Source: an uncultured Candidatus Saccharibacteria bacterium (GTDB taxonomy: Bacteria > Patescibacteriota > Minisyncoccia > Phycocordibacterales > 2-02-FULL-43-11). Taken from it: a DNA stretch of 64,000 nt. The position numbers and the translations under genes were made by a program. The notes beneath the pieces were generated by a model. The model was not told the origin of the DNA. It saw only the letters and a program-made list of their open reading frames with translations, and made no database searches. Below, piece after piece: positions 16,362-45,070 of this stretch. The stretch is from the NCBI GenBank assembly GCA_964348785.1, contig CAYGDO010000002.1, forward strand, positions 66,238-130,237, read 5' to 3'. Position 1 is the stretch's first letter. Each line of letters starts with the position of its first letter.

Positions 16362-19300
16362 TTACTTTAAACTTTTAAGTAAGCTCTTCAAACTGTTTGA
16401 GAGAGACTGCAAGTTGTTAATTAATTGTCCAGCTTGACGATCAAAATACGCCTGACCTGCTGACGGCTTAAAAAATGTATTGATGACAGTACCACCAGTT
16501 TTAGGATTAATTTGAAAAACCGCAAAAGAGTTCGACAAAGAATCGTAGGCCCTTGCCACACCTCCAGCATCTATTTTTAGTGAAGTTTTACCATTCATTG
16601 CGTCAGTTACAAAATCTCTAGCACCTTTTATATACTCCTTAGTATTTTTAAATCCAAATTTCTCTGCATGTTTCCCAGCATGATAAATTGCATTATCGGC
16701 CAACGTTAACTTGGTTCCTTTACTCCAGATACCCTCAAAGACTGGCACCACTTTCCCCGCGGGTATCTCCCCCGCAGTCAATGCCCCAACGGCCGCCATC
16801 CCATAATTTCCTTTATCTACATCATCTATTACTTGGCTGACAGCAACTTGCCCAAGTGGAGTGAGTAACGATTGGGCAAAGGAAGTTATCTGTGGAGCGT
16901 ACATTGTCAAAACCCCTGCAACAGCCACTAGAGCTGGAAGAAACCTCCCATCCGGGTCTTTGTAAGTTACGGGATTATTACCTCCATACGAATACGAATT
17001 CTGAACTTGAGGATTTAAAAGAGCTTCCTTCCCTTCTTTACTCATCCCCACTTCCCAAAACACCGGATCCTGATTAAGAAACTGCCCTCTTGCTCCATCG
17101 TAGTAACGAGCATTAAGGTAAGAAAGTCCTGTACTTGCATCAAACTCCTGCCCTATATACTTCCTCTGTTCTTTTGGAGAACCTCCTTCATCTGCCCTAA
17201 TACTACCATAAGGATAATAGTCGATTAATTCCACAACTTTACCAGCGGTATCTGTGGAGAGAGTAATAGAACCAAGGTGGTCGATTAAGTGGTAAGAGAG
17301 AGATGAAGATGACGTTAGGTCTATAGGCTTTAGCTGGCGGATTGTTCCTCCTTTTTTGATTAAGACGCCACCTCCTTTCTTAACTAGAAGCTTGGAGGCT
17401 TTGAGGTTGATGTAGAGAGTGGAGTCTGCTGTGACAGTAAGAACTTTACCTACAGGGACAATGACAGAAGCGGGAGCGGTAACGGAGCCCACAATAGTAC
17501 ACGAAGAAATCAGCGTGAAATCTCCTGTTTCTGGAATAACACAAGTACCAGCGTTTGCATTTGTTAACTTTGGAGCTACGGGTGTCTTTTTGTCAAAAGT
17601 GGAGAGTAACGTGTCGCCCACAAAAACGTGAGAAGTCTCGGACACAACAACGTCGTCAGAATTGTATCCTGCGTTGAAGTATTTAGATGGATACAAAGTA
17701 ACACCGCCTTTCCCATCAGAAACCTTCACCCTAGCGCCTCCGTGATCATAAGCGTAAGTGGAAGTGGCGAGACCGTTTGCAACAGAAATTAGGCGGTTGT
17801 TGTAGTCATATATATAGGAAATATTGCCAAACGAAATCAAATTACCACTTTTGTCGTAAGAGAGAGTGTTGGTTGCCACAGAACTACCGGTAACCGTCGA
17901 CGCGTGGGGGTTGGCGTAATCGGTACCATCATAAAAATAGTTAGTAGTTGTAAACTTCCCCACAGCACTACTAAATGGGGTATTTTCATTAAAAATAGGA
18001 GCTCCGAAAGCCGTGAGATGGTATGCATTCGCCGTAAAATCGTAATAATTATTGCCAAGTTTGTAGTAAGCAACAAGATTGGCCTCATTCCCACTCAACT
18101 CAGTAAGATAATTGCTATCCAAATCAACAAGCGAACGACTTGTATTCCAAAATCGGACATCGTCAACAAGACCGTCCCAATTATGCGGATTTGGGAAAGT
18201 GGCCTTACCGATAGCCAATTCATTAAACCCGCCATAACCTCTACCGACAGCAAGAGTGGGGCCTTTCACCAAAGTATGCCCGCTGCTAGTTGATGTTGCC
18301 AAATACAAGTTCATTTCTGTGCCATTGTAAGTTCCGACAATATGGTACCAAGAGCCGACAGAGAGGGTGGTGTCATAAATTATTCTTGCCCCCCCAACTC
18401 CTTCTATATGCCTGTCAAAATTAATGTGGTGAGATCCGTCAGTATAGCTTGTAGATAAAGAGTAACCGACATTGGTCACAGCATCCTGTTGAGACGCAAT
18501 AATATTGAACCCAGCGGAAGGCAAACTTTCAGGTTTTATCCAAGCCTCTATAGTAATAGGTCCCCCAGAAATACCAGCATTAGTTGGGACGGAAGCATAC
18601 TGACTAGAGTCTCCTTCAACATCTAAAGAATATGGGTTGAGTGAAACTTGCCCTTCAATTTTACTAATAATATTTCCAAGCGGATTGTAAGCAAAAGATT
18701 GTTGATTTGGCGTCGCCAATGCATCTACCAATCGATACAAATCATCATACTTATACGTCGCGATTTTCTTTGTGTTGGTTTCCGAATTATCCACAATCTG
18801 CAAAATATTTCCGACAGAATCGTAAGTGTAGGACAAATTTTGAAGTTGTAAGTTGTTAGCTGAAAGAGTCTTTTTATTTGTTAAGCGATAAAGTCGCGCT
18901 GGATCATAGGTATTTGTAGCAACAACACCATTACCATAAGTAATCGTTTTTAGCTGACCAAGTGGCGAATAATCAAAAGCGCCGATTTGCGTTACAGGTG
19001 TAGTTGTGGAAACTCCAGTTGCCGATATTGAATCAACTAAACCTGCGGAATTGTATATGTATGAAGTTTTTTTGGAATCAACGCCGGTCATTTCTGTCAC
19101 ACCTCCTCCTAAATTGTAGAGATAACTTGAAATGAAAGTTTTACCTCCAATAATTTTAGTTTCAGTTTTTGCTTGCCCCGCGGGGGTGTATGCGTAGCTA
19201 GTACTATTCATTTCTAAATTTGCCCCGACAGAATCATCGGCATAAGAAACCGCACAAAGCTTACCGATGCCGAAATCACAGGCGTCATAAGTGTAAGTTG

Positions 19301-22300
19301 TCCTAACACCTACAGGGATAGTTGAAATTGGAGAAGAAGCTGCCTCAATTTTCCCCAATCTATTCAACGAATCGTAAGTATAAACTGTTCGCGTACCATT
19401 CGGATCGGTTTTCCCCGTAAGATTGCCGACATCGTCATACTGATATGAGTAAACCCCGAAAGCGGTGTCACTTGGCGTGTGCAAATCTTCCGCCAAAAGT
19501 CGTCTACCGGAAAAGTCATAAGTGAAATTACGAATATTTTGAAGCGCATCTGTGATTTTTACAAGATTTCCTAAAGAATCATATTCATAAAATGTGGAGT
19601 AGGTGTCGGGATAATTAAATTCATCCACACGAGTAAGTCGGCCAAAAACATCTTTATAATATATTTTACTTTTACCGAGCGTGTCGGTAATTTTTGTCTG
19701 ACCGGGACTGAAATATGTATTGGTCGTCCCTAAAGCGTCAGTTTTCTGCACATTCCTACCGAGTGCATCATAAGTAAAGCTAGTATACAAAGAACTGTCA
19801 CTCGTGGCAGAAGTTTTACCTGAACCGTCACTAAAATATGGCAAAGATTGTTTTCCAACGCGACCCTCAGAATCATAAATTATGTCTGACACAATAAAAG
19901 TATTGGGATTTTCAGATTGTTTTCGAGTTTGTATCTCCCTACCAATGCCATCAAAATAAGTGTAGGTTTCGTTTGAAAGAGTACTGTTTATGAAATCAAC
20001 TTTTTTAACAGAAATATTATTTGGAGTATCTGTGTATTGATAAATTGTTTTTGTCACTAAAGAAGCCGAAATACCCGAAACCACGACGGAATTTCCGTCA
20101 GGCTGTTTTTCTTGAAGAGTACGGCCAAAAGCGTCGTATGCTTTGGAATAAATTTGATTATTTGAATCGGTGATTTGAATTGGCTTTCCTAGAGCGTAAT
20201 CGTAAAGATAAGTGGTTTTTTGATTCAAATGATTAGTGACTGAAATCGGAAAAAGATTGTATGTGTCGTAAGAATAACCGGTAGAATTTCCATTTGCATC
20301 GGTTGATGTTGCCACAAGCGCAAACGGATTGTATGTTGCAGAAGTAATGGAATACCTACCATCAGAAATCAAAGATTCTTGTTTTGTGCCATTGCCTTCT
20401 AAAAGTTGACCAAAAGGTAAATCATCAAAATATGTTTTTGATTCCGAAATCACATTTCCAGATTGCGAATTAGTAGTTTTATGAGATACCTCGTAATGAA
20501 TTTGTATTGAAGTTGAAGTGGAAACGCCCGCGTTTGAAGCGTACTCAACATTAGTTATAGTTTTGTCATTTCCAATATCAACAAAAGAATAAGAAGCGAG
20601 CGTGTTTGTTGACGCGGAAGTTACCTCGCCATAATCAACAGAAGAAATTAAATTGCCATTTGAGGTATCGTATGAATATTCCGTAGCGTGATCTTTGTGA
20701 GAAGTCGTGCCGTCAAAACTTTCTTCAATCTTTTTAGAAAGATACACAAATACCGGTGCGGAAGAAGTAAAGCCTGCTGAATTTACTCCCGCTAAAGGAG
20801 ACTCACTATAAATATTTTGATTTCTGGCGAACAACTTACCCTCCCTATCAAAAACTTCTGTTTTATATACAGAGCCGATTTTGCCGTAACTATCCCCTGT
20901 TTCTCCAGTTGAAGAGTTATCACCATTCCCCTGATGAAAATATGAAATTGTCACAGATTTTCCGGAATCTTTTGTAACCTTGCCAAATCCGGCAAATTTT
21001 CTATCGTGCGAACCGTTAAAAAATCCTTGCCCATCTGCGTAAGTGTATGTATCTACTTGTGGCTCTCCACCCACGCCATCGGTTGTAGTTATTTTGGACA
21101 CAATCCAAAGAACTGTTGGCAGTTTTAGATTAAACCGCTCACCCGAAGCGGAAGTTTTGTAATCAATAGATGTTTTTCCGCCTTGCGGGTAAGTTATAGT
21201 TTTTAAAATATCCGCTCTTGTTGTGGGGCCACTTGGAATATCAACGAGGGTGTCACCGTTGGTGTCATAGTAGTCGGTCAGTTGATAGGAAAAATTCCAC
21301 TTCCAATTGTAAGGATTTATTTTAATAAAATATGGAGACTTGAGGGTTGAACTTTTTACAAATCCATTTCCTGTATTTATGTAAACTTCATTATAATCCC
21401 CTGTTGTGTACCCGTTATCAAAATTTGGGTTGTTTGGCAAAACCCAACCACGCAAAACATCAACTAGCCCGTCAGCGTTAATATCCAGATACCGAACCCC
21501 CATATCATTACCGTCACCATCAGTCATCATTAATGTGTGGTCAGGTGAATCACCAAAAATAGGAACCATTGGTCCAGTTAACCCCCCATCTCCAGTACCT
21601 ATACGAAAAGAACTGTATCTATCGCTAGTCTTTGTATCATCTAAACCATCACCATTAACATCCATCGCACCCACTCGCCTCCTCTCCTCCCACCCAGATA
21701 TTTCGCGTCCATAAATTTCTGGTAGGCCATCTCCATTTGTGTCTGCAACGAAAGAGCCTTTGGCTACTAGCAAAGGAGTGGTAGTTGATATGTATGTATA
21801 ACTATTATCCAAACTATTAATACCGCTATTCAGATAAAGTGTCGGTGGATTGGGAGGAGGAGGACAGGTGGCGTTGGTACAACTACCTGCATTAAAGAGT
21901 GTAACCGGAACACCGAAAAAATCAGTTAAACCGTCACCATTCAAATCCGCAATACGCGCACCACTATCCTCTGGGCCTGAACCGTTTGAACCCCTAGTAT
22001 GATAAGCAAATCTTAAATTAGGTAGGGAATTTGAACCCGCTACGCCTAACTTGTTCCACTCCACCTGAATATTAAAACTATTTGATTCATAAGGGTTAAT
22101 TCCAAGCACAAATGAATCTGTGTAGCCATCACCATTCAAATCAGCATAAACATCTCCCCCTCTTTCTGGACCGTAAAAGAAAGAGCCGAGAGCCCAACTA
22201 AACGTACCGGATGAAATAGCAGGCTCAAGCCCCGTCGGTAAAACAGGATTTTCAAACCCCTTCGTGTACTCAAAAGTTGTTTGCGGTAAAGTTGTTGCAA

Positions 22301-23615
22301 CGTTTTGGGAGTCGTAGCCAGTTTCAGTAATTCCTGAAAGGATTGAACGTACGCCGTTTACACCAACTCCGTAGGCAAATTCGTATTTCTTTTTCAAAAT
22401 ATCACTGACACGAATTTCAATTATTTTGAGTCGTTTGGCATTGGTACTTAAAAATGCAAACTTGTATGAAGAAATAGCACTGTCTGAACGAGTATCTTCA
22501 TATACAAAAGTGACTTTGTAAATTCCAGATACAACTTCTCCGGAATTTGCCTGATGATTGGTATAAGTAATTTCAGTTGGATATACCTGACCGCCAGTTA
22601 CCGTATAGTTATATGAAATGTAATTACCGTTTGAATCACGGACTTCATCTAGATACCATTTAGCAACACGAGAAGCATTTGCAGGGTCCGCGTTTCGTGA
22701 AGTTGCCACCGAACCGAAAGTGTAGACTCTGCCGTTTTTATCATAAACCTTCCAACTCGTAGTGGTGGCGTTGTAAACATATTTCAAAAATTCGCCGGAA
22801 TCAACGCGAGGTTGATATAAACCAGCAATTGTAGTTGAGGCTAATTCACCGGATAAGCTGGAACTGAAATAATCTTGACCATACATTACTATATTTCCCT
22901 GCTTATTGATTCTCTCAATTGATGGAATGTTAAAATCCCAACCATACCCCATCGTATTTATGTTGGAATTCTCGGACGAGTTATATGAAATATTTAAAGA
23001 TGTCTCAACACCTGCCCTACCGGAAGGTGTAACAATCGGATAGGAATATGAAAGCGCTCCCGAGGAAGCATTGGCTTCGGGAAGAGTGGTTTTTCTATAA
23101 GCAAAATTGGAATTATCGTAAGTGGTTGGCTTGTTTTCCAACTGAGCGCTAGTGGCTTCAATTTCTGGAGGTAACAAGTCTTGCGCGTCCGGAGAAACCT
23201 CTGGAATTTCAGTGTCCAACTTTGGAGCTTCCGGAGCAATCTCGGGCACCACTTCAGTTTTTGGATTTGCATCTACAGTTGTTTCGGGAGTTATTTGTGT
23301 CGGGTCAGGTAAAATAGTAGAGCCTATTTCAGAATTTTCTGATGCAGAACTGCTTGGTGTTGATGTATCAGGAGAAACGTTGGTCTCAGCTGGGGTAGAT
23401 GGAGATGCAGTTTGGTCAGAGGAGGTTTCAACGGAAGCTACGGGGACAGGAGGTTGCGAAGCAACCTCCTGCGCAAACGCCACAGCAATCGGTTGCATTA
23501 AAAAAGCAACCACCAAAAAACTGGTTACGATTTTTTGCGTATTTGATTTTCTTATTTTCTTTGTAGAAACAATTGAAAAAAAGAAATTCATAGAATTTTT
23601 ACTGACACTTCCCAA
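16362..23615 (-). CDS. Tc-toxin-like TcB/TcC fusion / RHS polymorphic toxin: signal, S/T/P linker, SpvB domain, FG-GAP beta-propeller, YD repeats with LamG insertion, RHS core, C-terminal toxin domain
   Basis: SpvB-like N-terminal region. 'ADLNGDGLTD/DVNGDGLDD/LDINADGLVD' FG-GAP repeats. Many YD repeats ('YTYDALGR','YEYDSLGNL','YQYDDVGNL'). RHS core 'YHLIDHLGS...YYPYG...RYYDGARGQFLNQDPV...NPVTYKDPDGRF'. About 195-aa tip follows. Confidence 0.85.
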   Translation of the reverse strand: MGSVSKNSMNFFFSIVSTKKIRKSNTQKIVTSFLVVAFLMQPIAVAFAQEVASQPPVPVASVETSSDQTASPSTPAETNVSPDTSTPSSSASENSEIGSTILPDPTQITPETTVDANPKTEVVPEIAPEAPKLDTEIPEVSPDAQDLLPPEIEATSAQLENKPTTYDNSNFAYRKTTLPEANASSGALSYSYPIVTPSGRAGVETSLNISYNSSENSNINTMGYGWDFNIPSIERINKQGNIVMYGQDYFSSSLSGELASTTIAGLYQPRVDSGEFLKYVYNATTTSWKVYDKNGRVYTFGSVATSRNADPANASRVAKWYLDEVRDSNGNYISYNYTVTGGQVYPTEITYTNHQANSGEVVSGIYKVTFVYEDTRSDSAISSYKFAFLSTNAKRLKIIEIRVSDILKKKYEFAYGVGVNGVRSILSGITETGYDSQNVATTLPQTTFEYTKGFENPVLPTGLEPAISSGTFSWALGSFFYGPERGGDVYADLNGDGYTDSFVLGINPYESNSFNIQVEWNKLGVAGSNSLPNLRFAYHTRGSNGSGPEDSGARIADLNGDGLTDFFGVPVTLFNAGSCTNATCPPPPNPPTLYLNSGINSLDNSYTYISTTTPLLVAKGSFVADTNGDGLPEIYGREISGWEERRRVGAMDVNGDGLDDTKTSDRYSSFRIGTGDGGLTGPMVPIFGDSPDHTLMMTDGDGNDMGVRYLDINADGLVDVLRGWVLPNNPNFDNGYTTGDYNEVYINTGNGFVKSSTLKSPYFIKINPYNWKWNFSYQLTDYYDTNGDTLVDIPSGPTTRADILKTITYPQGGKTSIDYKTSASGERFNLKLPTVLWIVSKITTTDGVGGEPQVDTYTYADGQGFFNGSHDRKFAGFGKVTKDSGKSVTISYFHQGNGDNSSTGETGDSYGKIGSVYKTEVFDREGKLFARNQNIYSESPLAGVNSAGFTSSAPVFVYLSKKIEESFDGTTSHKDHATEYSYDTSNGNLISSVDYGEVTSASTNTLASYSFVDIGNDKTITNVEYASNAGVSTSTSIQIHYEVSHKTTNSQSGNVISESKTYFDDLPFGQLLEGNGTKQESLISDGRYSITSATYNPFALVATSTDANGNSTGYSYDTYNLFPISVTNHLNQKTTYLYDYALGKPIQITDSNNQIYSKAYDAFGRTLQEKQPDGNSVVVSGISASLVTKTIYQYTDTPNNISVKKVDFINSTLSNETYTYFDGIGREIQTRKQSENPNTFIVSDIIYDSEGRVGKQSLPYFSDGSGKTSATSDSSLYTSFTYDALGRNVQKTDALGTTNTYFSPGQTKITDTLGKSKIYYKDVFGRLTRVDEFNYPDTYSTFYEYDSLGNLVKITDALQNIRNFTYDFSGRRLLAEDLHTPSDTAFGVYSYQYDDVGNLTGKTDPNGTRTVYTYDSLNRLGKIEAASSPISTIPVGVRTTYTYDACDFGIGKLCAVSYADDSVGANLEMNSTSYAYTPAGQAKTETKIIGGKTFISSYLYNLGGGVTEMTGVDSKKTSYIYNSAGLVDSISATGVSTTTPVTQIGAFDYSPLGQLKTITYGNGVVATNTYDPARLYRLTNKKTLSANNLQLQNLSYTYDSVGNILQIVDNSETNTKKIATYKYDDLYRLVDALATPNQQSFAYNPLGNIISKIEGQVSLNPYSLDVEGDSSQYASVPTNAGISGGPITIEAWIKPESLPSAGFNIIASQQDAVTNVGYSLSTSYTDGSHHINFDRHIEGVGGARIIYDTTLSVGSWYHIVGTYNGTEMNLYLATSTSSGHTLVKGPTLAVGRGYGGFNELAIGKATFPNPHNWDGLVDDVRFWNTSRSLVDLDSNYLTELSGNEANLVAYYKLGNNYYDFTANAYHLTAFGAPIFNENTPFSSAVGKFTTTNYFYDGTDYANPHASTVTGSSVATNTLSYDKSGNLISFGNISYIYDYNNRLISVANGLATSTYAYDHGGARVKVSDGKGGVTLYPSKYFNAGYNSDDVVVSETSHVFVGDTLLSTFDKKTPVAPKLTNANAGTCVIPETGDFTLISSCTIVGSVTAPASVIVPVGKVLTVTADSTLYINLKASKLLVKKGGGVLIKKGGTIRQLKPIDLTSSSSLSYHLIDHLGSITLSTDTAGKVVELIDYYPYGSIRADEGGSPKEQRKYIGQEFDASTGLSYLNARYYDGARGQFLNQDPVFWEVGMSKEGKEALLNPQVQNSYSYGGNNPVTYKDPDGRFLPALVAVAGVLTMYAPQITSFAQSLLTPLGQVAVSQVIDDVDKGNYGMAAVGALTAGEIPAGKVVPVFEGIWSKGTKLTLADNAIYHAGKHAEKFGFKNTKEYIKGARDFVTDAMNGKTSLKIDAGGVARAYDSLSNSFAVFQINPKTGGTVINTFFKPSAGQAYFDRQAGQLINNLQSLSNSLKSLLKSLK

Positions 23616-28593: not shown

Positions 28594-29310
28594 TTAATGA
28601 TTATACGTTTTTACTTTAGAGAGTTCTGACACAATTTTTAAAATATTTTTACTAGTTTCTTTATAATAATTAATCTCTGGGTCATGATCATTCTTAAGAA
28701 CCAGATCGCGCGCGTAAATAGGTCTCCCAAAAATCACTCGAACAAATCTTTTTCTCAAGACAAAGTCCCAAAAACCCATCTTATATAAATCAGTAAGCAA
28801 AATAGGAACAATTGGCAATTCTGTTTTTTCAGCAAGAAAAGTAACACCTCCTCTCGCCTCTTCAATCATAACATTTCCAGTCCTGGTTGTTTTACCTTCT
28901 GGAAATATCAAAAGACTATGTCCTTTTTGAATAATGTGAATGTGACGAGATAAAGAAATACCATAATCTTTATATCCCGATATTACAGAATGGGCTCCCC
29001 ATAATTTAAATACGGTCCCGCCATAAAAAATTTGTCTCCAACCACTAGTTTTATAAAAATCTTTTGGTCTTGAAGTGTAAAACATTGGCATAAACTTAGA
29101 TAAAAAAGGCAAACTAGCCGGAACCAAAACGGGATCAAGCTCACCTGTATGATTAGCAGCAAAAATTACGCCTGGAGATAATTTTTGTAAATTATCTAAA
29201 CCCTCCACTTTTAAGTGGAGGAAAAATCTAAAAAGTGGCCGAGTAATCGGCCATATTGCTGTTTGCAAAATTAAGGGGGTAAAGAGAAAAATTTTTTCTA
29301 TATTTTTCAT
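28594..29310 (-). CDS. plsC: 1-acyl-sn-glycerol-3-phosphate acyltransferase
   Basis: 'AANHTGELDP' (HX4D) and 'FPEGKTTRTG' LPLAT motifs. Confidence 0.8.
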   Translation of the reverse strand: MKNIEKIFLFTPLILQTAIWPITRPLFRFFLHLKVEGLDNLQKLSPGVIFAANHTGELDPVLVPASLPFLSKFMPMFYTSRPKDFYKTSGWRQIFYGGTVFKLWGAHSVISGYKDYGISLSRHIHIIQKGHSLLIFPEGKTTRTGNVMIEEARGGVTFLAEKTELPIVPILLTDLYKMGFWDFVLRKRFVRVIFGRPIYARDLVLKNDHDPEINYYKETSKNILKIVSELSKVKTYNH

Positions 29311-29367
29311 CTAATTTTGATGCCCGTATTTTAACATAAAACAACAAAAATAATACAAATTGTAAAG

Positions 29368-29395
29368 TTGCCAAATAAATAAGCAAGAGTAATAT
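29368..29395 (+). promoter_or_regulatory. candidate promoter TTGCCA, 16-nt spacer, TAATAT, driving the ncRNA candidate
   Basis: Sequence match placed about 7 nt before the GC-rich RNA start. Confidence 0.35.
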
Positions 29396-29400
29396 TTTCA

Positions 29401-29758
29401 ATGTCTTCGGTGTCGTGAGAAGGAAACGGAGCCACTGATGGGTCTCCCTGCGGAGATACAGAGGGCTCGTGTGATTCCCAAAAAAGTACCCGAAAGGGAC
29501 ATAAGGGAAGAGCCTAAACCCCGGCTTGGCTGGGGGGTTGAGGGACCTCAACATCACGGTATCTACGAACGGTCGCCGGAATAGGTTCGGCGTGACTTAG
29601 TAGGAGAACCGAGAGGTATCCCAAGTAGGTTCGTGCCATGCGACCGAATCCGTCCCAGAACTCTGGGATAAGGCTAAACTCTGAGCGCCCTTGCGAGCGC
29701 GCTCCTCCGAAGACCCGGACCCCCACGTTGCACAAGCGACGTGGGGTTTTGTTTTTTT
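29401..29758 (+). ncRNA. candidate structured non-coding RNA, class unassigned (about 355 nt)
   Basis: GC-rich island on the plus strand amid minus-strand genes. Long-range perfect 8-bp closing stem GUCUUCGG (29403-29410) with CCGAAGAC (29707-29714). GNRA hairpin CCC-GAAA-GGG. Ends with strong terminator ccccacg..cgtgggg plus U-run at 29721-29758. Annotated ORFs here are short and overlapping. Confidence 0.45.
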
Positions 29759-29765
29759 AAAAAAC

Positions 29766-31289
29766 CTAGAAAGAACTCAGCCCCGAATACTCCATAAGCA
29801 AATATTGAACTCTTTTCATTAAACGATCATCCTGATATTTTTCATACCCAACCGAATAAATTTTTCCATTTTCATTATTCCAAATCTCGTCAAAAAACTT
29901 TTGCGCATCTTTAAAAACCATTTCATCCTTGTCGCCCAAAACCAAAACGTTAGTTTCTAAATTATAATTTCCAAGATTTCTTCTTGTTAAATTTGCAGAG
30001 CCTTGTATGAGAGAATAATGATTACTTTTTCTAAAATTAAATGTTTTGTCACTTAAAGACGCCCCTACGGCATCTCTTTTAAATAAAATCAACTTGGAAT
30101 GACACTGCTCACCATGAGTTAAACACCATCTAACTTCAGTGTTATTTGATTTAAGAAGAACCTCGCTCGCCACTTGCCTATTTGGCACACCATCTTTTTC
30201 CCTACCAAAAGCATCTTTGTTGGGATCAAAAAAAAGTCTTATTTTCACCCCTCGCCTATCAGCCTTTTTTATGGCCCTCACAATATCTCTGTCAGAAATA
30301 TAAAACATTGCCATATCAAGACCGTCTCCACTTTGGAGAGTGCTCATCTCCTCCAAAATAGATTTTTTTATTGATTTCTCTGTTAAAAGTTGAACTCTCA
30401 AAGAAGAGGTCACTGTCTCAAAAATCTTTTTGTTAGAAAAATTTGGTTCTACAAAATTGCCATTTGAAAAATCAACAACTAATTTCTCGCTCTGAAGAAC
30501 ATCTCTCCATAATTTTTCATCCACAACTATGGCCGTATTACTGTGAGCACTTGATCCATCGTGAGGATTAGCAGAAGTTATAAGCACAGAAACTTTAATA
30601 TTATTGCTTTCTAACTTATCAGCCAAAACCACCTTCCTGTGGTTAGCCTTAAAATTAAAAAGGGAAAGGTAGGTTCTAATCCCAAGTTTTTGTCCACCTT
30701 GTTTAAAAGGGTTGGGTAAAAAACCAACCTCAGAACTATTAGGAAACCAACCAAAAAAAGCTCGCCAAAAACCACTATAAAGCGGGTTACTATCCCTTAA
30801 AACCTTCAAATTCGTGATTGTAACGCTTATTCCTGCGTCTTTAAGCTCCTCTAGGTGAATTGCCGTAATACCGCCATAAATCTCATTTATAGGGTCAGTA
30901 ATTACTTGTATGACAATTTCTGGATTTTGACGTTTTTTGGTTATTAATTTTTGAGTTAAATCATAAGATAAAGATTTGTAGGAAGAAGTGGCCGTGCCAA
31001 GCATTCCATTAAACAAAAACATATCCATAAGGATATACGAATGAGCTTCATCTATCATCTTAAAAACTTCATCAAAAATCTGTTGGTCCATTTTTCTACT
31101 GGAGGAATCGTCAATGTATGTCTTATCAGACAAAAATCGGACACTTTCTGAAGAAACATTGAAAACCGTTCCGGAAAAATTCACTCCTTTTGGCAAGAGT
31201 TTTACAAGACCATAAATAGCAAAAAAGACATAAATCAGAATTAAAACAAGAAAAAGTTTTTTACAAAAATTTTTAATTTTTAGAAACAT
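29766..31289 (-). CDS. phospholipase D family protein (cardiolipin synthase-like), N-terminal TM
   Basis: Two HKD-like motifs: 'HRKVVLAD...' and 'HSKLILFK...GSANLTRRN'. Confidence 0.65.
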   Translation of the reverse strand: MFLKIKNFCKKLFLVLILIYVFFAIYGLVKLLPKGVNFSGTVFNVSSESVRFLSDKTYIDDSSSRKMDQQIFDEVFKMIDEAHSYILMDMFLFNGMLGTATSSYKSLSYDLTQKLITKKRQNPEIVIQVITDPINEIYGGITAIHLEELKDAGISVTITNLKVLRDSNPLYSGFWRAFFGWFPNSSEVGFLPNPFKQGGQKLGIRTYLSLFNFKANHRKVVLADKLESNNIKVSVLITSANPHDGSSAHSNTAIVVDEKLWRDVLQSEKLVVDFSNGNFVEPNFSNKKIFETVTSSLRVQLLTEKSIKKSILEEMSTLQSGDGLDMAMFYISDRDIVRAIKKADRRGVKIRLFFDPNKDAFGREKDGVPNRQVASEVLLKSNNTEVRWCLTHGEQCHSKLILFKRDAVGASLSDKTFNFRKSNHYSLIQGSANLTRRNLGNYNLETNVLVLGDKDEMVFKDAQKFFDEIWNNENGKIYSVGYEKYQDDRLMKRVQYLLMEYSGLSSF

Positions 31290-31348: not shown

Positions 31349-31582
31349 TTAAATCGGCACAATGACAAATCTGTCATTTTCCTGGCACAGTTCGAGCTCG
31401 CGCAAAAACGCCCTGACAACACCAAGCTCAACCCACGTTTTATCATCAACGTGAATGACACTAGTTCCAAGCAACCTGACCAAGTCCTCGTCGCGCCTAA
31501 ATGGTTTAAGAAACCGTTTTGCCCTCTTGCCCAGTTTCAATCCCCTTTTCCGTAATCTATGCAAGAAATTTTTAACAGTCAC
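31349..31582 (-). CDS. small basic hypothetical protein (77 aa) in a GC-rich island
   Basis: GTG start preceded by GGAGGT RBS ('ggaggtataagGTG'). Elevated GC. The overlapping plus-strand ORF 31346..31555 is rejected. Confidence 0.45.
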   Translation of the reverse strand: MTVKNFLHRLRKRGLKLGKRAKRFLKPFRRDEDLVRLLGTSVIHVDDKTWVELGVVRAFLRELELCQENDRFVIVPI

Positions 31583-44575: not shown

Positions 44576-45070
44576 TCAGTCCTTCCTCATTCTATAAGGA
44601 CTGGGCCCGTCTGGAGATCGGTCCAATAACTCTTGAACCCGATCCCTCATCCGAGGTTCCATTTTCTGAAGCAACCCCGCCATCGTGTCCGGACAAGCAG
44701 GTGAAGTCTCAGCGGTCAGTTGTGGCCAACCACCATCACCGTCCGCCGGATCCTGCATAGGCCAACCGTTGCCAGTTTCGGCCGTAACGGGAGGTGTAGA
44801 AGCCGGGACAAGTTCCACATCCGGCTCTCCAAACATTCGACACAAAACTGTCAGAATATTATTCTCCGCATCAATCCCAATCCCTAAAAACCTTCCCAGG
44901 GCATCCGAGACTACGGTAGAATCTGGGACACACTCACCGTGCGCAACGAAGCCCTGCTCTCCAACACTTACCCACTGACCGAACATCGGCGAACCGTCGA
45001 GCTGAAGACCGAGAATTCTCTGACGAGCTTCAGAAGTCAAAAAATTCACACCAGCTTTTTCATTACTCAT
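44576..45070 (-). CDS. hypothetical protein in a strongly GC-rich island
   Basis: ATG preceded by AGGAGG RBS (8-nt spacing). GC far above neighbours. Own terminator. Confidence 0.5.
   Translation of the reverse strand: MSNEKAGVNFLTSEARQRILGLQLDGSPMFGQWVSVGEQGFVAHGECVPDSTVVSDALGRFLGIGIDAENNILTVLCRMFGEPDVELVPASTPPVTAETGNGWPMQDPADGDGGWPQLTAETSPACPDTMAGLLQKMEPRMRDRVQELLDRSPDGPSPYRMRKD

Follow-up and report, generated by a model that had tools for sequence, protein, structure and literature searches.

A probable miniature paralogue of 23S rRNA domain I, encoded by a separate gene in an uncultured Saccharibacteria bacterium

A stretch of 64,000 nucleotides (nt) from an uncultured Candidatus Saccharibacteria bacterium (contig CAYGDO010000002.1 of assembly GCA_964348785.1; this whole stretch is called the window, and its positions are used throughout) carries a gene, at 29403-29758 on the plus strand, whose product is called the mini-RNA here. 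It is very probably a real, independently transcribed, stable and highly structured RNA and a miniaturised paralogue of domain I of 23S ribosomal RNA (rRNA). The gene lies outside any full-length 23S gene or rrn operon, between an acyltransferase gene and a PLD-family (cls-like) gene, both on the minus strand. An earlier sequence-only reading had postulated at this place a structured RNA standing by itself, with a promoter, long-range stem and terminator of its own. The proposal is upheld by helices that covary in homologues, while the origin from 23S domain I had escaped that reading. The mini-RNA is rRNA-derived and possibly also rRNA-mimicking.

Relationship to 23S rRNA domain I

The mini-RNA is collinear with large-subunit (LSU) rRNA from the GGAAaAGAAA strand before helix 10 (H10) to the AAGGCUAAA strand after H22. 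This span covers positions ~215-475 of the Rfam LSU model (RF02541), which we take to be nt ~170-435 of E. coli 23S rRNA. Helix names and E. coli numbering follow the standard 23S map, and the placement of H18-H20 at nt 281-359 is anchored in a paper (PMC6426284). H11-, H13/14-, H16-, H19-, H21- and H22-like helices are retained together with their junction strands almost letter for letter. The strands GAAGGAAA and GUGAUUCC, which flank the H10-like hairpin P2, match the LSU consensus GGAAaAGAAA ... GAuuCC, and the core junction is closed by GCC / GGC, the equivalent of the LSU long-range pair aGcC / GgCu (AGCC ... GGCU in the mini-RNA). The H16-like helix corresponds to the LSU consensus pairing GGa.ccgcc / ggcgg..uCC. 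The loop of P7, AUAGG, resembles the H19 loop of LSU, UGGAAAg. The mini-RNA has neither H20 nor distal H18. The internal hairpins reported earlier from the sequence are thus the H13/14-, H19-, H21- and H22-like ones, and the 'GNRA hairpin' among them is the tip of the H11-like helix.

Two covariance models were used for searches. R1 is a single-sequence model of the core at 29512-29684, and R2 was built from three mini-RNAs only, those of the window and of two syntenic homologues (L050 and L051, described below). With R1, the scores of L051 and L050 are 89 and 80 bits, respectively. When the longest invariant block, GGGGTKGAGGGACCTCAAC, was used as a search pattern, eight metagenome contigs were matched. 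R2 has a full-length match in four of them (L059, L062, L063, L064; 60.5 bits, E ~1e-13, model E-values being rough). The two of these put to Rfam, L059 and L064, are genuine bacterial 23S genes, scoring 1237 and 1836 bits with RF02541, and the R2 match falls at ~268-480 of the LSU model in both. The remaining contigs (L058, L060, L061, L065) have neither an R2 nor an Rfam match and were set aside as chance matches. R2 also matches four 23S genes from other classes of the same phylum (35-58 bits).

The reverse test gives the same relationship. An nhmmer profile of six genuine 23S domain-I segments matches 29453-29608 (E 2.8e-7), its sole significant match within the 64-kb window. The same profile also matches L051 (2.9e-6), L050 (7e-6) and L067, the copy from genome G426 described below (0.005). 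Pairwise alignment of the mini-RNA with real 23S rRNA gives z = 9.6 against shuffles, on the plus strand only. RF02541 itself stays below its gathering threshold in the window, with no match over the mini-RNA at E <= 10 in 29200-29900 or in L050 and L051, and none at E <= 1 in L067. Note that it is collinear homology in both sequence and structure, found below the Rfam threshold, that ties the mini-RNA to LSU rRNA. In a limited literature library, full-text searching brought up no report of a bacterial rRNA domain with a stand-alone paralogue.

The genome (792 kb, 36% GC, 11 contigs) has a 23S gene of its own, whose 5' part lies at the end of contig C3 (992-1, minus strand; RF02541 689 bits, LSU positions 1-880). 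Its domain I is complete and gapless over LSU 215-475. The mini-RNA is therefore a paralogue, an extra molecule, and not a piece of split rRNA. R2 does not recognise this 23S. The GC content of the organism's own 23S domain I is 44%, compared with 56% in the mini-RNA, which therefore is not a recent duplicate. The mini-RNA is thus an extra, old and GC-rich paralogue.

Compared with the Rfam consensus, the organism's own 23S (G000:C3:1-992, L066) contains AT-rich insertions of ~27 nt near H10, 54 nt in H13/14 and 23 nt before H18. Contig C3 ends inside this gene. The idea that this domain I has unusual defects for which an RNA in trans would compensate was rejected, since relatives without the mini-RNA have comparable or larger insertions: same-genus genomes in which it was not found share the same conserved 23S blocks and have even longer variable stretches.

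Gene structure, conservation and distribution

The mini-RNA gene stands out from its surroundings, with a GC content of 56% in 29401-29700 against about 30-36% in the flanks. The minimum free energy of this strand is -149 kcal/mol (z = -4.5 against dinucleotide shuffles), and the fold is a multi-branched junction. Its features are listed in Table 1. The promoter, the exactly complementary closing helix, the GNRA hairpin and the terminator stem with its U-run, all proposed from the sequence before, are present. Transcription is predicted to start ~7 nt 3' of the -10 box, at the first base of P1, and the terminator points towards the 3' end of the PLD-family gene, which is convergent.

Table 1. 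Features of the mini-RNA gene, with the evidence or remark for each
Feature	Position	Strand	Evidence or remark
Predicted whole transcript	29403-29758	+	312-nt body (29403-29714), then linker, terminator hairpin and U-run
Putative sigma-70-type promoter TTGCCA-16-TAATAT	29368-29395	+	Scan; -35 box 29368-29373, -10 box 29390-29395
P1, 5' strand GUCUUCGG	29403-29410	+	Pairs with 29707-29714; rRNA counterpart not found
P1, 3' strand CCGAAGAC	29707-29714	+	Exact complement of 29403-29410
P2, expanded H10-like hairpin	29426-29470	+	nhmmer alignment; LSU consensus
H11-like helix UUCCC / GGGAA with apical CCC-GAAA-GGG hairpin (29489-29498)	29475-29509	+	Profile of real 23S genes
Core four-way junction (LSU model ~264-475)	29512-29684	+	Covariance models R1 and R2; covariation
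P4, H13/14-like hairpin	29519-29535	+	Double changes in 3 of 7 pairs
H16-like helix, 5' strand GGGACCUC	29542-29549	+	Pairs with 29613-29622 (GAGG-UA-UCCC); RNAalifold
Trimmed H18/H19-like arm	29557-29611	+	P6 29557-29564 / 29603-29611; P7 29574-29592
P8, H21-like hairpin, then conserved GAAUC	29628-29645	+	Two pairs with double changes; LSU consensus
P9, H22-like hairpin	29654-29667	+	Double changes in 2 of 5 pairs
AAGGCUAAAC strand (23S AAGgCuAAaUAc)	29670-29679	+	Invariant in all four stand-alone copies; LSU consensus
P10, local hairpin	29683-29704	+	rRNA counterpart not found; absent in G426
Intrinsic terminator	29721-29758	+	11-bp stem 29721-29746, 4-nt loop, U-run; compensatory changes in L050 and L051
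Two overlapping open reading frames, judged spurious	29228-29557 and 29514-29735	-	Open reading frame list, Pfam, protein search, homologue frames

Two homologues on Logan contigs (L050:2063-2398 and L051:4498-4851) were reached via the neighbouring PLD-family protein, which is 78% and 68% identical, respectively, to that of the window. Both contigs share the gene order DnaJ, 77-aa gene, PLD gene, RNA, acyltransferase gene. The position and sequence of the promoter are kept in both (TTGAAT/TTGCAA ... TAATAT), and TTGTAAAG upstream of the boxes is common to all three loci. The RNA and the PLD gene are likewise adjacent in a groundwater relative found in public sequencing runs. Loci with PLD (cls) proteins of 53-58% identity (L052-L056) have no mini-RNA. 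The suggested recurrence of the RNA beside plsC/cls in relatives thus holds in the close relatives L050 and L051 but fails at the more distant cls loci and in G426. Homologues of the PLD-family gene carry names such as Candidatus Paceibacterota and Nomurabacteria, which place the group in the Patescibacteria (Candidate Phyla Radiation).

Across the three sequences, compensatory changes are found in P1, P2, P4, the P6/P7 arm, P8, P9, P10 and the terminator. By our estimate, chance alone would yield about one 8-mer complement within 350 nt; P1 is validated by covariation: in L050 it reads GUCUUGGUG / CACCAAGAC, with a C-G pair changed to G-C. The base of P2 is GAGCC/GGCUC in the window and GGAGAU/AUCUCC in L051. 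The stem of P10 is GAGCGC/GCGCUC in the window, GAUGCUCU/AGAGCAUC in L050 and GAAUCC/GGAUUC in L051. In the core alignment, which consists of three sequences fitted to the model, pairing extends to 93.8% of cells, and double changes occur in 11 of 44 pairs. None of 500 shuffles reaches these values, and sliding the partners by 1-3 columns leaves 30-54% of cells paired and at most two such pairs. The three RNAs are 62-73% identical, compared with 53-60% at third codon positions of the adjacent gene. The fold of the mini-RNA is under purifying selection.

Two parts of the fold vary less or more than the rest. The H16-like helix shows no covariation because it is nearly invariant. A U>G change in L051 argues against an alternative local hairpin at 29542-29549, and the long-range pairing preferred by RNAalifold was settled on because it matches the LSU consensus pairing. 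The apical hairpin of the H11-like helix is kept in L051, reduced in G426 and deleted in L050. In all, four stand-alone copies are known, three of them from close relatives.

The two short overlapping open reading frames (ORFs) on the opposite strand do exist, as had been listed before, and have no Pfam match above the curated cut-offs. They carry stops in the homologues, and no reading frame is open throughout in all three sequences. A search made with ORF 29514-29735 (73 aa) alone found no relatives among 5.8 billion proteins. Both ORFs are judged from these comparisons to be spurious.

Contigs of 317, 229 and 151 nt from a sediment metatranscriptome match 29420-29717 only, at roughly 88-95% identity with few gaps, and share the trimmed arm specific to the mini-RNA. 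Those at about 88% identity span 29420-29683 only. In the variant seen there, 29524 G>U in P4 is compensated by 29530 C>A, and 29557 C>A in P6 by 29611 G>U. These are assembled contigs of one study; the transcriptomic check that had been proposed thus yields matching sequence over this span but neither strand nor ends, and hints that the mini-RNA is expressed.

Searches for distant members used R2. It found no mini-RNA in four same-genus genomes (E <= 10) or in 150 genomes of the order, and one match in 150 genomes of the class (G426:C18:21586-21802, 32 bits). Among 62 genomes of the order of G426, no match besides that in G426 was obtained. In 150 genomes of the phylum there were four matches, every one inside a real 23S gene. 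Since these genomes are samples of their groups and R2 is only moderately sensitive, the mini-RNA is to be regarded as not found in those searched rather than absent. With blastn, the mini-RNA gave only short chance matches in coding regions of the family and of 300 genomes of the order. A pattern of GATTCCCAAAAAAGTA followed by a hairpin, run on genome contigs, gave one match, in a methyltransferase gene of Ca. Aerophobus, which was rejected as chance. The pattern GGTATCCCAA-N-GGGATAAGGCTAAAC had no match in metagenome and viral contigs.

G426 belongs to another family of the same class. Its copy lies between genes for a subtilase and an MFS transporter, with a promoter TTGACA-17-TATATT, with no LSU sequence within 1.5 kb on either side and with no Rfam match at E <= 1. 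It starts with GGAAGAAAGC..GAUUCCC and finishes with AAGGCUAAACC, and it is closed by an unrelated helix, GUGGGCU / AGCCCAC. Two families thus share one rRNA sub-domain with identical boundaries, in unrelated gene contexts and with unrelated closing helices, which argues that the sub-domain itself is the selected unit and that the PLD and acyltransferase neighbours are incidental.

In same-genus genomes, one or two tRNA genes (L040:2303-2375; L046:~460-680) lie between the acyltransferase gene and dnaJ, in a spacer that has neither such an RNA nor a PLD-family gene. In the window this spacer contains the mini-RNA, the PLD gene and the 77-aa gene. The spacer is thus a variable spot. The cls protein has no match in 40 relatives at E <= 1e-20, and its gene is accessory in the genus. 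In the groundwater relative, a tRNA gene lies directly upstream of the RNA promoter, with a loose end at 29326. ARAGORN finds no tRNA gene in the entire 64-kb window.

The 77-aa protein (31349-31582, minus strand; L050:221-454; L051:2742-2975), encoded just upstream of the PLD-family gene, has a very basic N-terminus. It belongs to no Pfam family and has three relatives among 1.84 billion representative proteins. It was considered as a partner protein of the mini-RNA because it co-occurs in the three syntenic loci. Its gene is absent from G426, so it is not a shared partner.

Possible functions and rival explanations

Folding like the core of domain I, the mini-RNA may be a trans-acting molecular mimic. 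Proteins whose usual target is domain I of nascent 23S rRNA would find a domain-I-like surface on it. Candidate partners are the early-assembly ribosomal proteins (r-proteins) uL4, uL24, uL22 or uL13, or an assembly or modification factor, which the mini-RNA would titrate, store or chaperone. In this way it would couple the levels of free partner proteins to ribosome production. Comparable cases are 6S RNA for RNA polymerase and the leaders of r-protein operons that mimic rRNA in cis. It is reported that 50S assembly is started by uL3, uL4, uL13, bL20, uL22 and uL24, and regulation of r-proteins via RNA structures that mimic their rRNA sites is an established principle (PMC10931766). The primary site of uL4/uL24 is H18-H20 (E. 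coli nt 281-359) (PMC6426284).

That the mini-RNA acts as such a trans-acting mimic or sponge for domain-I-binding proteins is put forward tentatively. For the identity and this mechanism taken as one reading, the balance appears even to us. It is more doubtful that the mini-RNA represents the first bacterial trans-encoded 'rRNA-domain mimic', one that would bind proteins or factors of early 50S assembly, to sequester or chaperone them, and would found a new class of ribosome-biogenesis regulators in the ultra-small bacteria of the Candidate Phyla Radiation (CPR).

Several points weigh against a role as a mimic, in which the binding of any partner protein is so far a proposal. The H18/H19/H20 three-way junction, the best-known protein site, is reduced to a stem with one hairpin, so that a uL4/uL24 decoy does not readily suggest itself. 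L050 does without the H11-like hairpin, and the mini-RNA has no r-protein gene next to it. A core ribosome-assembly regulator would be expected to be commoner than the mini-RNA, which is rare (found in none of four same-genus genomes, none of 150 of the order, one of 150 of the class and none of the 61 other genomes of the order of G426).

The mini-RNA may instead be an exapted scaffold that descends from 23S domain I and now has a role unrelated to rRNA-binding proteins, for example as a subunit of a lineage-specific ribonucleoprotein, as a decoy for a ribosome-attacking phage or toxin factor, or as a catalytic or ligand-binding RNA. We consider this unlikely, though it accommodates much of what is seen: a sporadic, accessory-gene-like distribution, a variable spot occupied by tRNA genes in same-genus genomes, a trimmed primary uL4/uL24 junction, and the remodelling evident in the closing helices P1 and P10. 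However, conservation is strongest on the rRNA junction strands GCCYAAACC, GGGGUUG, UAUCCCAAGUA, GAAUC and AAGGCUAAAC, which argues that the rRNA-like surface itself is selected. Nor is any partner gene common to both lineages, since G426 has other flanking genes and is without the 77-aa gene.

Purifying selection on the fold bears directly on the possibility of a non-functional relic, that is, a decaying old 23S fragment transcribed by happenstance. An rRNA-derived and rare RNA that has lost several rRNA helices and is unrecognised by the Rfam LSU model could be taken for one. The compensatory double changes and the extent of core pairing speak against this, as do the conserved promoter and terminator and a conservation of the RNA above that of neighbouring third codon positions. 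Identical domain boundaries, each with a different new closing helix, in two lineages of different families are equally difficult to reconcile with decay, and the GC content of the mini-RNA sets it apart from a recent duplicate of the organism's own domain I. A relic is therefore very improbable and largely refuted.

The complete and uninterrupted domain I of the real 23S also counts against a genuine ribosome component, whether a separately encoded 23S piece, like 5.8S or chloroplast 4.5S rRNA, or an alternative domain I in specialised ribosomes. Homology to domain I and an apparent abundance in the RNA library would suit such a component. The ends of the mini-RNA, however, pair with each other and not with other 23S segments, and in the same-genus genomes G001 and G004, whose conserved 23S 5' blocks match, no mini-RNA was found. 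This explanation is highly improbable.

Hardly more can be said for a cis-antisense or convergent-transcription regulator of the PLD-family (cls-like) gene, which would act by read-through of the terminator. The two genes converge, the U-run ending only 7 nt from the stop codon of the PLD gene, and they remain adjacent in L050, L051 and the groundwater relative. The terminator, however, has a strong 11-bp stem, cls homologues at 53-58% identity are without such an RNA, and the G426 copy lies between other genes. On inspection of the sequences, no rival pairing was seen to covary with the arms of the terminator; a riboswitch-type anti-terminator was rejected on the same finding. A regulator of this kind is scarcely to be expected.

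The least credible explanation is a divergent known housekeeping or other Rfam RNA (RNase P, tmRNA, SRP, 6S, riboswitch or intron) or a minus-strand coding region; although the mini-RNA resembles housekeeping RNAs in size and GC-richness and two minus-strand ORFs exist, it is refuted, as far as these tools can test, by the lack of any Rfam match, by RNase P RNA and tmRNA being encoded elsewhere, by same-genus genomes in which the RNA was not found, unlike an essential RNA, by the downstream same-strand gene that a riboswitch would need and that is not there, and by ORFs that are unconserved, carry stops in homologues and, in the case of ORF 29514-29735, have no relatives. Rfam 15 gives no match at gathering thresholds in the entire window and no family at E <= 10 over the mini-RNA, L050 or L051. 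The sequence-only reading had asked for an Rfam scan and would have yielded to a known family; as none appears over the mini-RNA at E = 10, it stands. It had also failed to fit RNase P RNA, tmRNA and signal recognition particle (SRP) RNA, and rightly so. RNase P RNA (RF00010) is encoded in full length at C1:142804-143241 (78 bits, E 1.6e-24) and its model has no match at the mini-RNA locus. tmRNA (RF00023) is found at C4:67654-68066 (87 bits), and ARAGORN finds none in the window. SRP RNA models, small and large (RF00169 / RF01854), and the 6S RNA model (RF00013) have no match in the whole genome. No plus-strand gene follows the mini-RNA, both neighbours being on the minus strand, which does not fit a riboswitch or another cis-regulatory leader.

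That the mini-RNA is itself the SRP RNA was rejected: the helix 8 motif is not seen by eye, the models have no match, and SRP proteins are also apparently absent. As an observation in its own right, SRP RNA models have no match in G000 (the genome of the window) and the relatives searched, and the same is true of the Ffh M domain (PF02978). Searches of G000, its genus and five further Patescibacteria for the SRP54-type GTPase domain (PF00448) turned up marginal P-loop matches at best. Neither a DT[AS]GR motif nor an SRP-type GTPase arrangement is seen when G000 is translated in all six frames, and neither Ffh nor FtsY was detected. Overall, no SRP component was detected in G000, G001-G005, G080, G426, G565 and G583, while the same Pfam searches were positive in 14 of 14 control genomes. 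Either the pathway has really been lost, or this reflects a problem of sensitivity or assembly.

Other features of the window are as follows. At 2250-2725 on the plus strand there is a second GC-rich stretch (0.52) with no long ORF, which ends near 2697-2725 in a U-run preceded by a terminator-like hairpin. Rfam has no match there, nor is there any similarity to LSU 1-1967 or small-subunit rRNA 653-1533, and the stretch is probably the 'first' RNA candidate of the sequence-only reading. A weak RsaE-like match at 29229-29310 on the minus strand (26.9 bits, E 0.03, gathering score 79) is probably due to chance; it is built around a hairpin at 29235-29254, inside the 5' end of the acyltransferase ORF. 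On the same strand, a 164-aa ORF at 44576-45070 has 55% GC against 30-37% locally and no rRNA similarity, and a 2417-aa ORF at 16362-23615 has a somewhat raised GC content (0.40-0.45).

Comparison with known systems

An rRNA is usually seen as one molecule with one job. Here, a selected and separately expressed miniature of a single domain is found beside an intact 23S, which shows that a domain of rRNA can be copied, shortened and put to use as an RNA in its own right. When an AT-rich genome contains GC-rich 'orphan' RNAs, these may be rRNA derivatives that are not flagged by the full-length rRNA models of Rfam. If the mini-RNA does bind domain-I proteins, it would be a natural minimal model of the start site of 50S assembly and a handle on ribosome biogenesis in uncultivated CPR bacteria.

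The mini-RNA resembles 23S domain I (RF02541) in its collinear helix order and in its near-identical junction strands, including aGcC/GgCu and AAGGCUAAA. It differs from 23S rRNA in its size (~312 nt against ~2900), in having its own promoter and terminator, in its location outside an rrn operon, in the absence of distal H18 and of H20, in ends closed by P1 and P10, and in its coexistence with an intact 23S domain I. Like 5.8S rRNA, chloroplast 4.5S rRNA and fragmented organellar rRNAs, it is a separate small RNA homologous to part of the LSU. In those systems, however, the segment is missing from the main LSU rRNA and its separate piece becomes part of the ribosome. In the present genome the segment is still in the 23S, and the ends of the mini-RNA pair with each other.

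6S RNA and CsrB/RsmZ are abundant stand-alone RNAs that titrate a protein by imitating its nucleic-acid target, as is proposed for the mini-RNA. They have no relationship to it in sequence or structure, RF00013 being without a match in the genome. The rRNA-mimic leaders bound by uL1, uS8, uS15, bL20 and uL4 (S10 operon) are extra-ribosomal RNAs that resemble the rRNA site of a protein, again as is proposed here (PMC10931766). Such leaders of r-protein operons are short cis-acting elements of the 5' untranslated region with one binding site, and are usually convergent. The mini-RNA, in contrast, is followed by a terminator and by no same-strand gene, has no r-protein gene nearby, and is a free-standing homologous copy of a whole sub-domain. 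If the proposed mechanism is true, it would represent a new kind of trans-acting regulator, one that imitates rRNA by homology instead of convergent mimicry.

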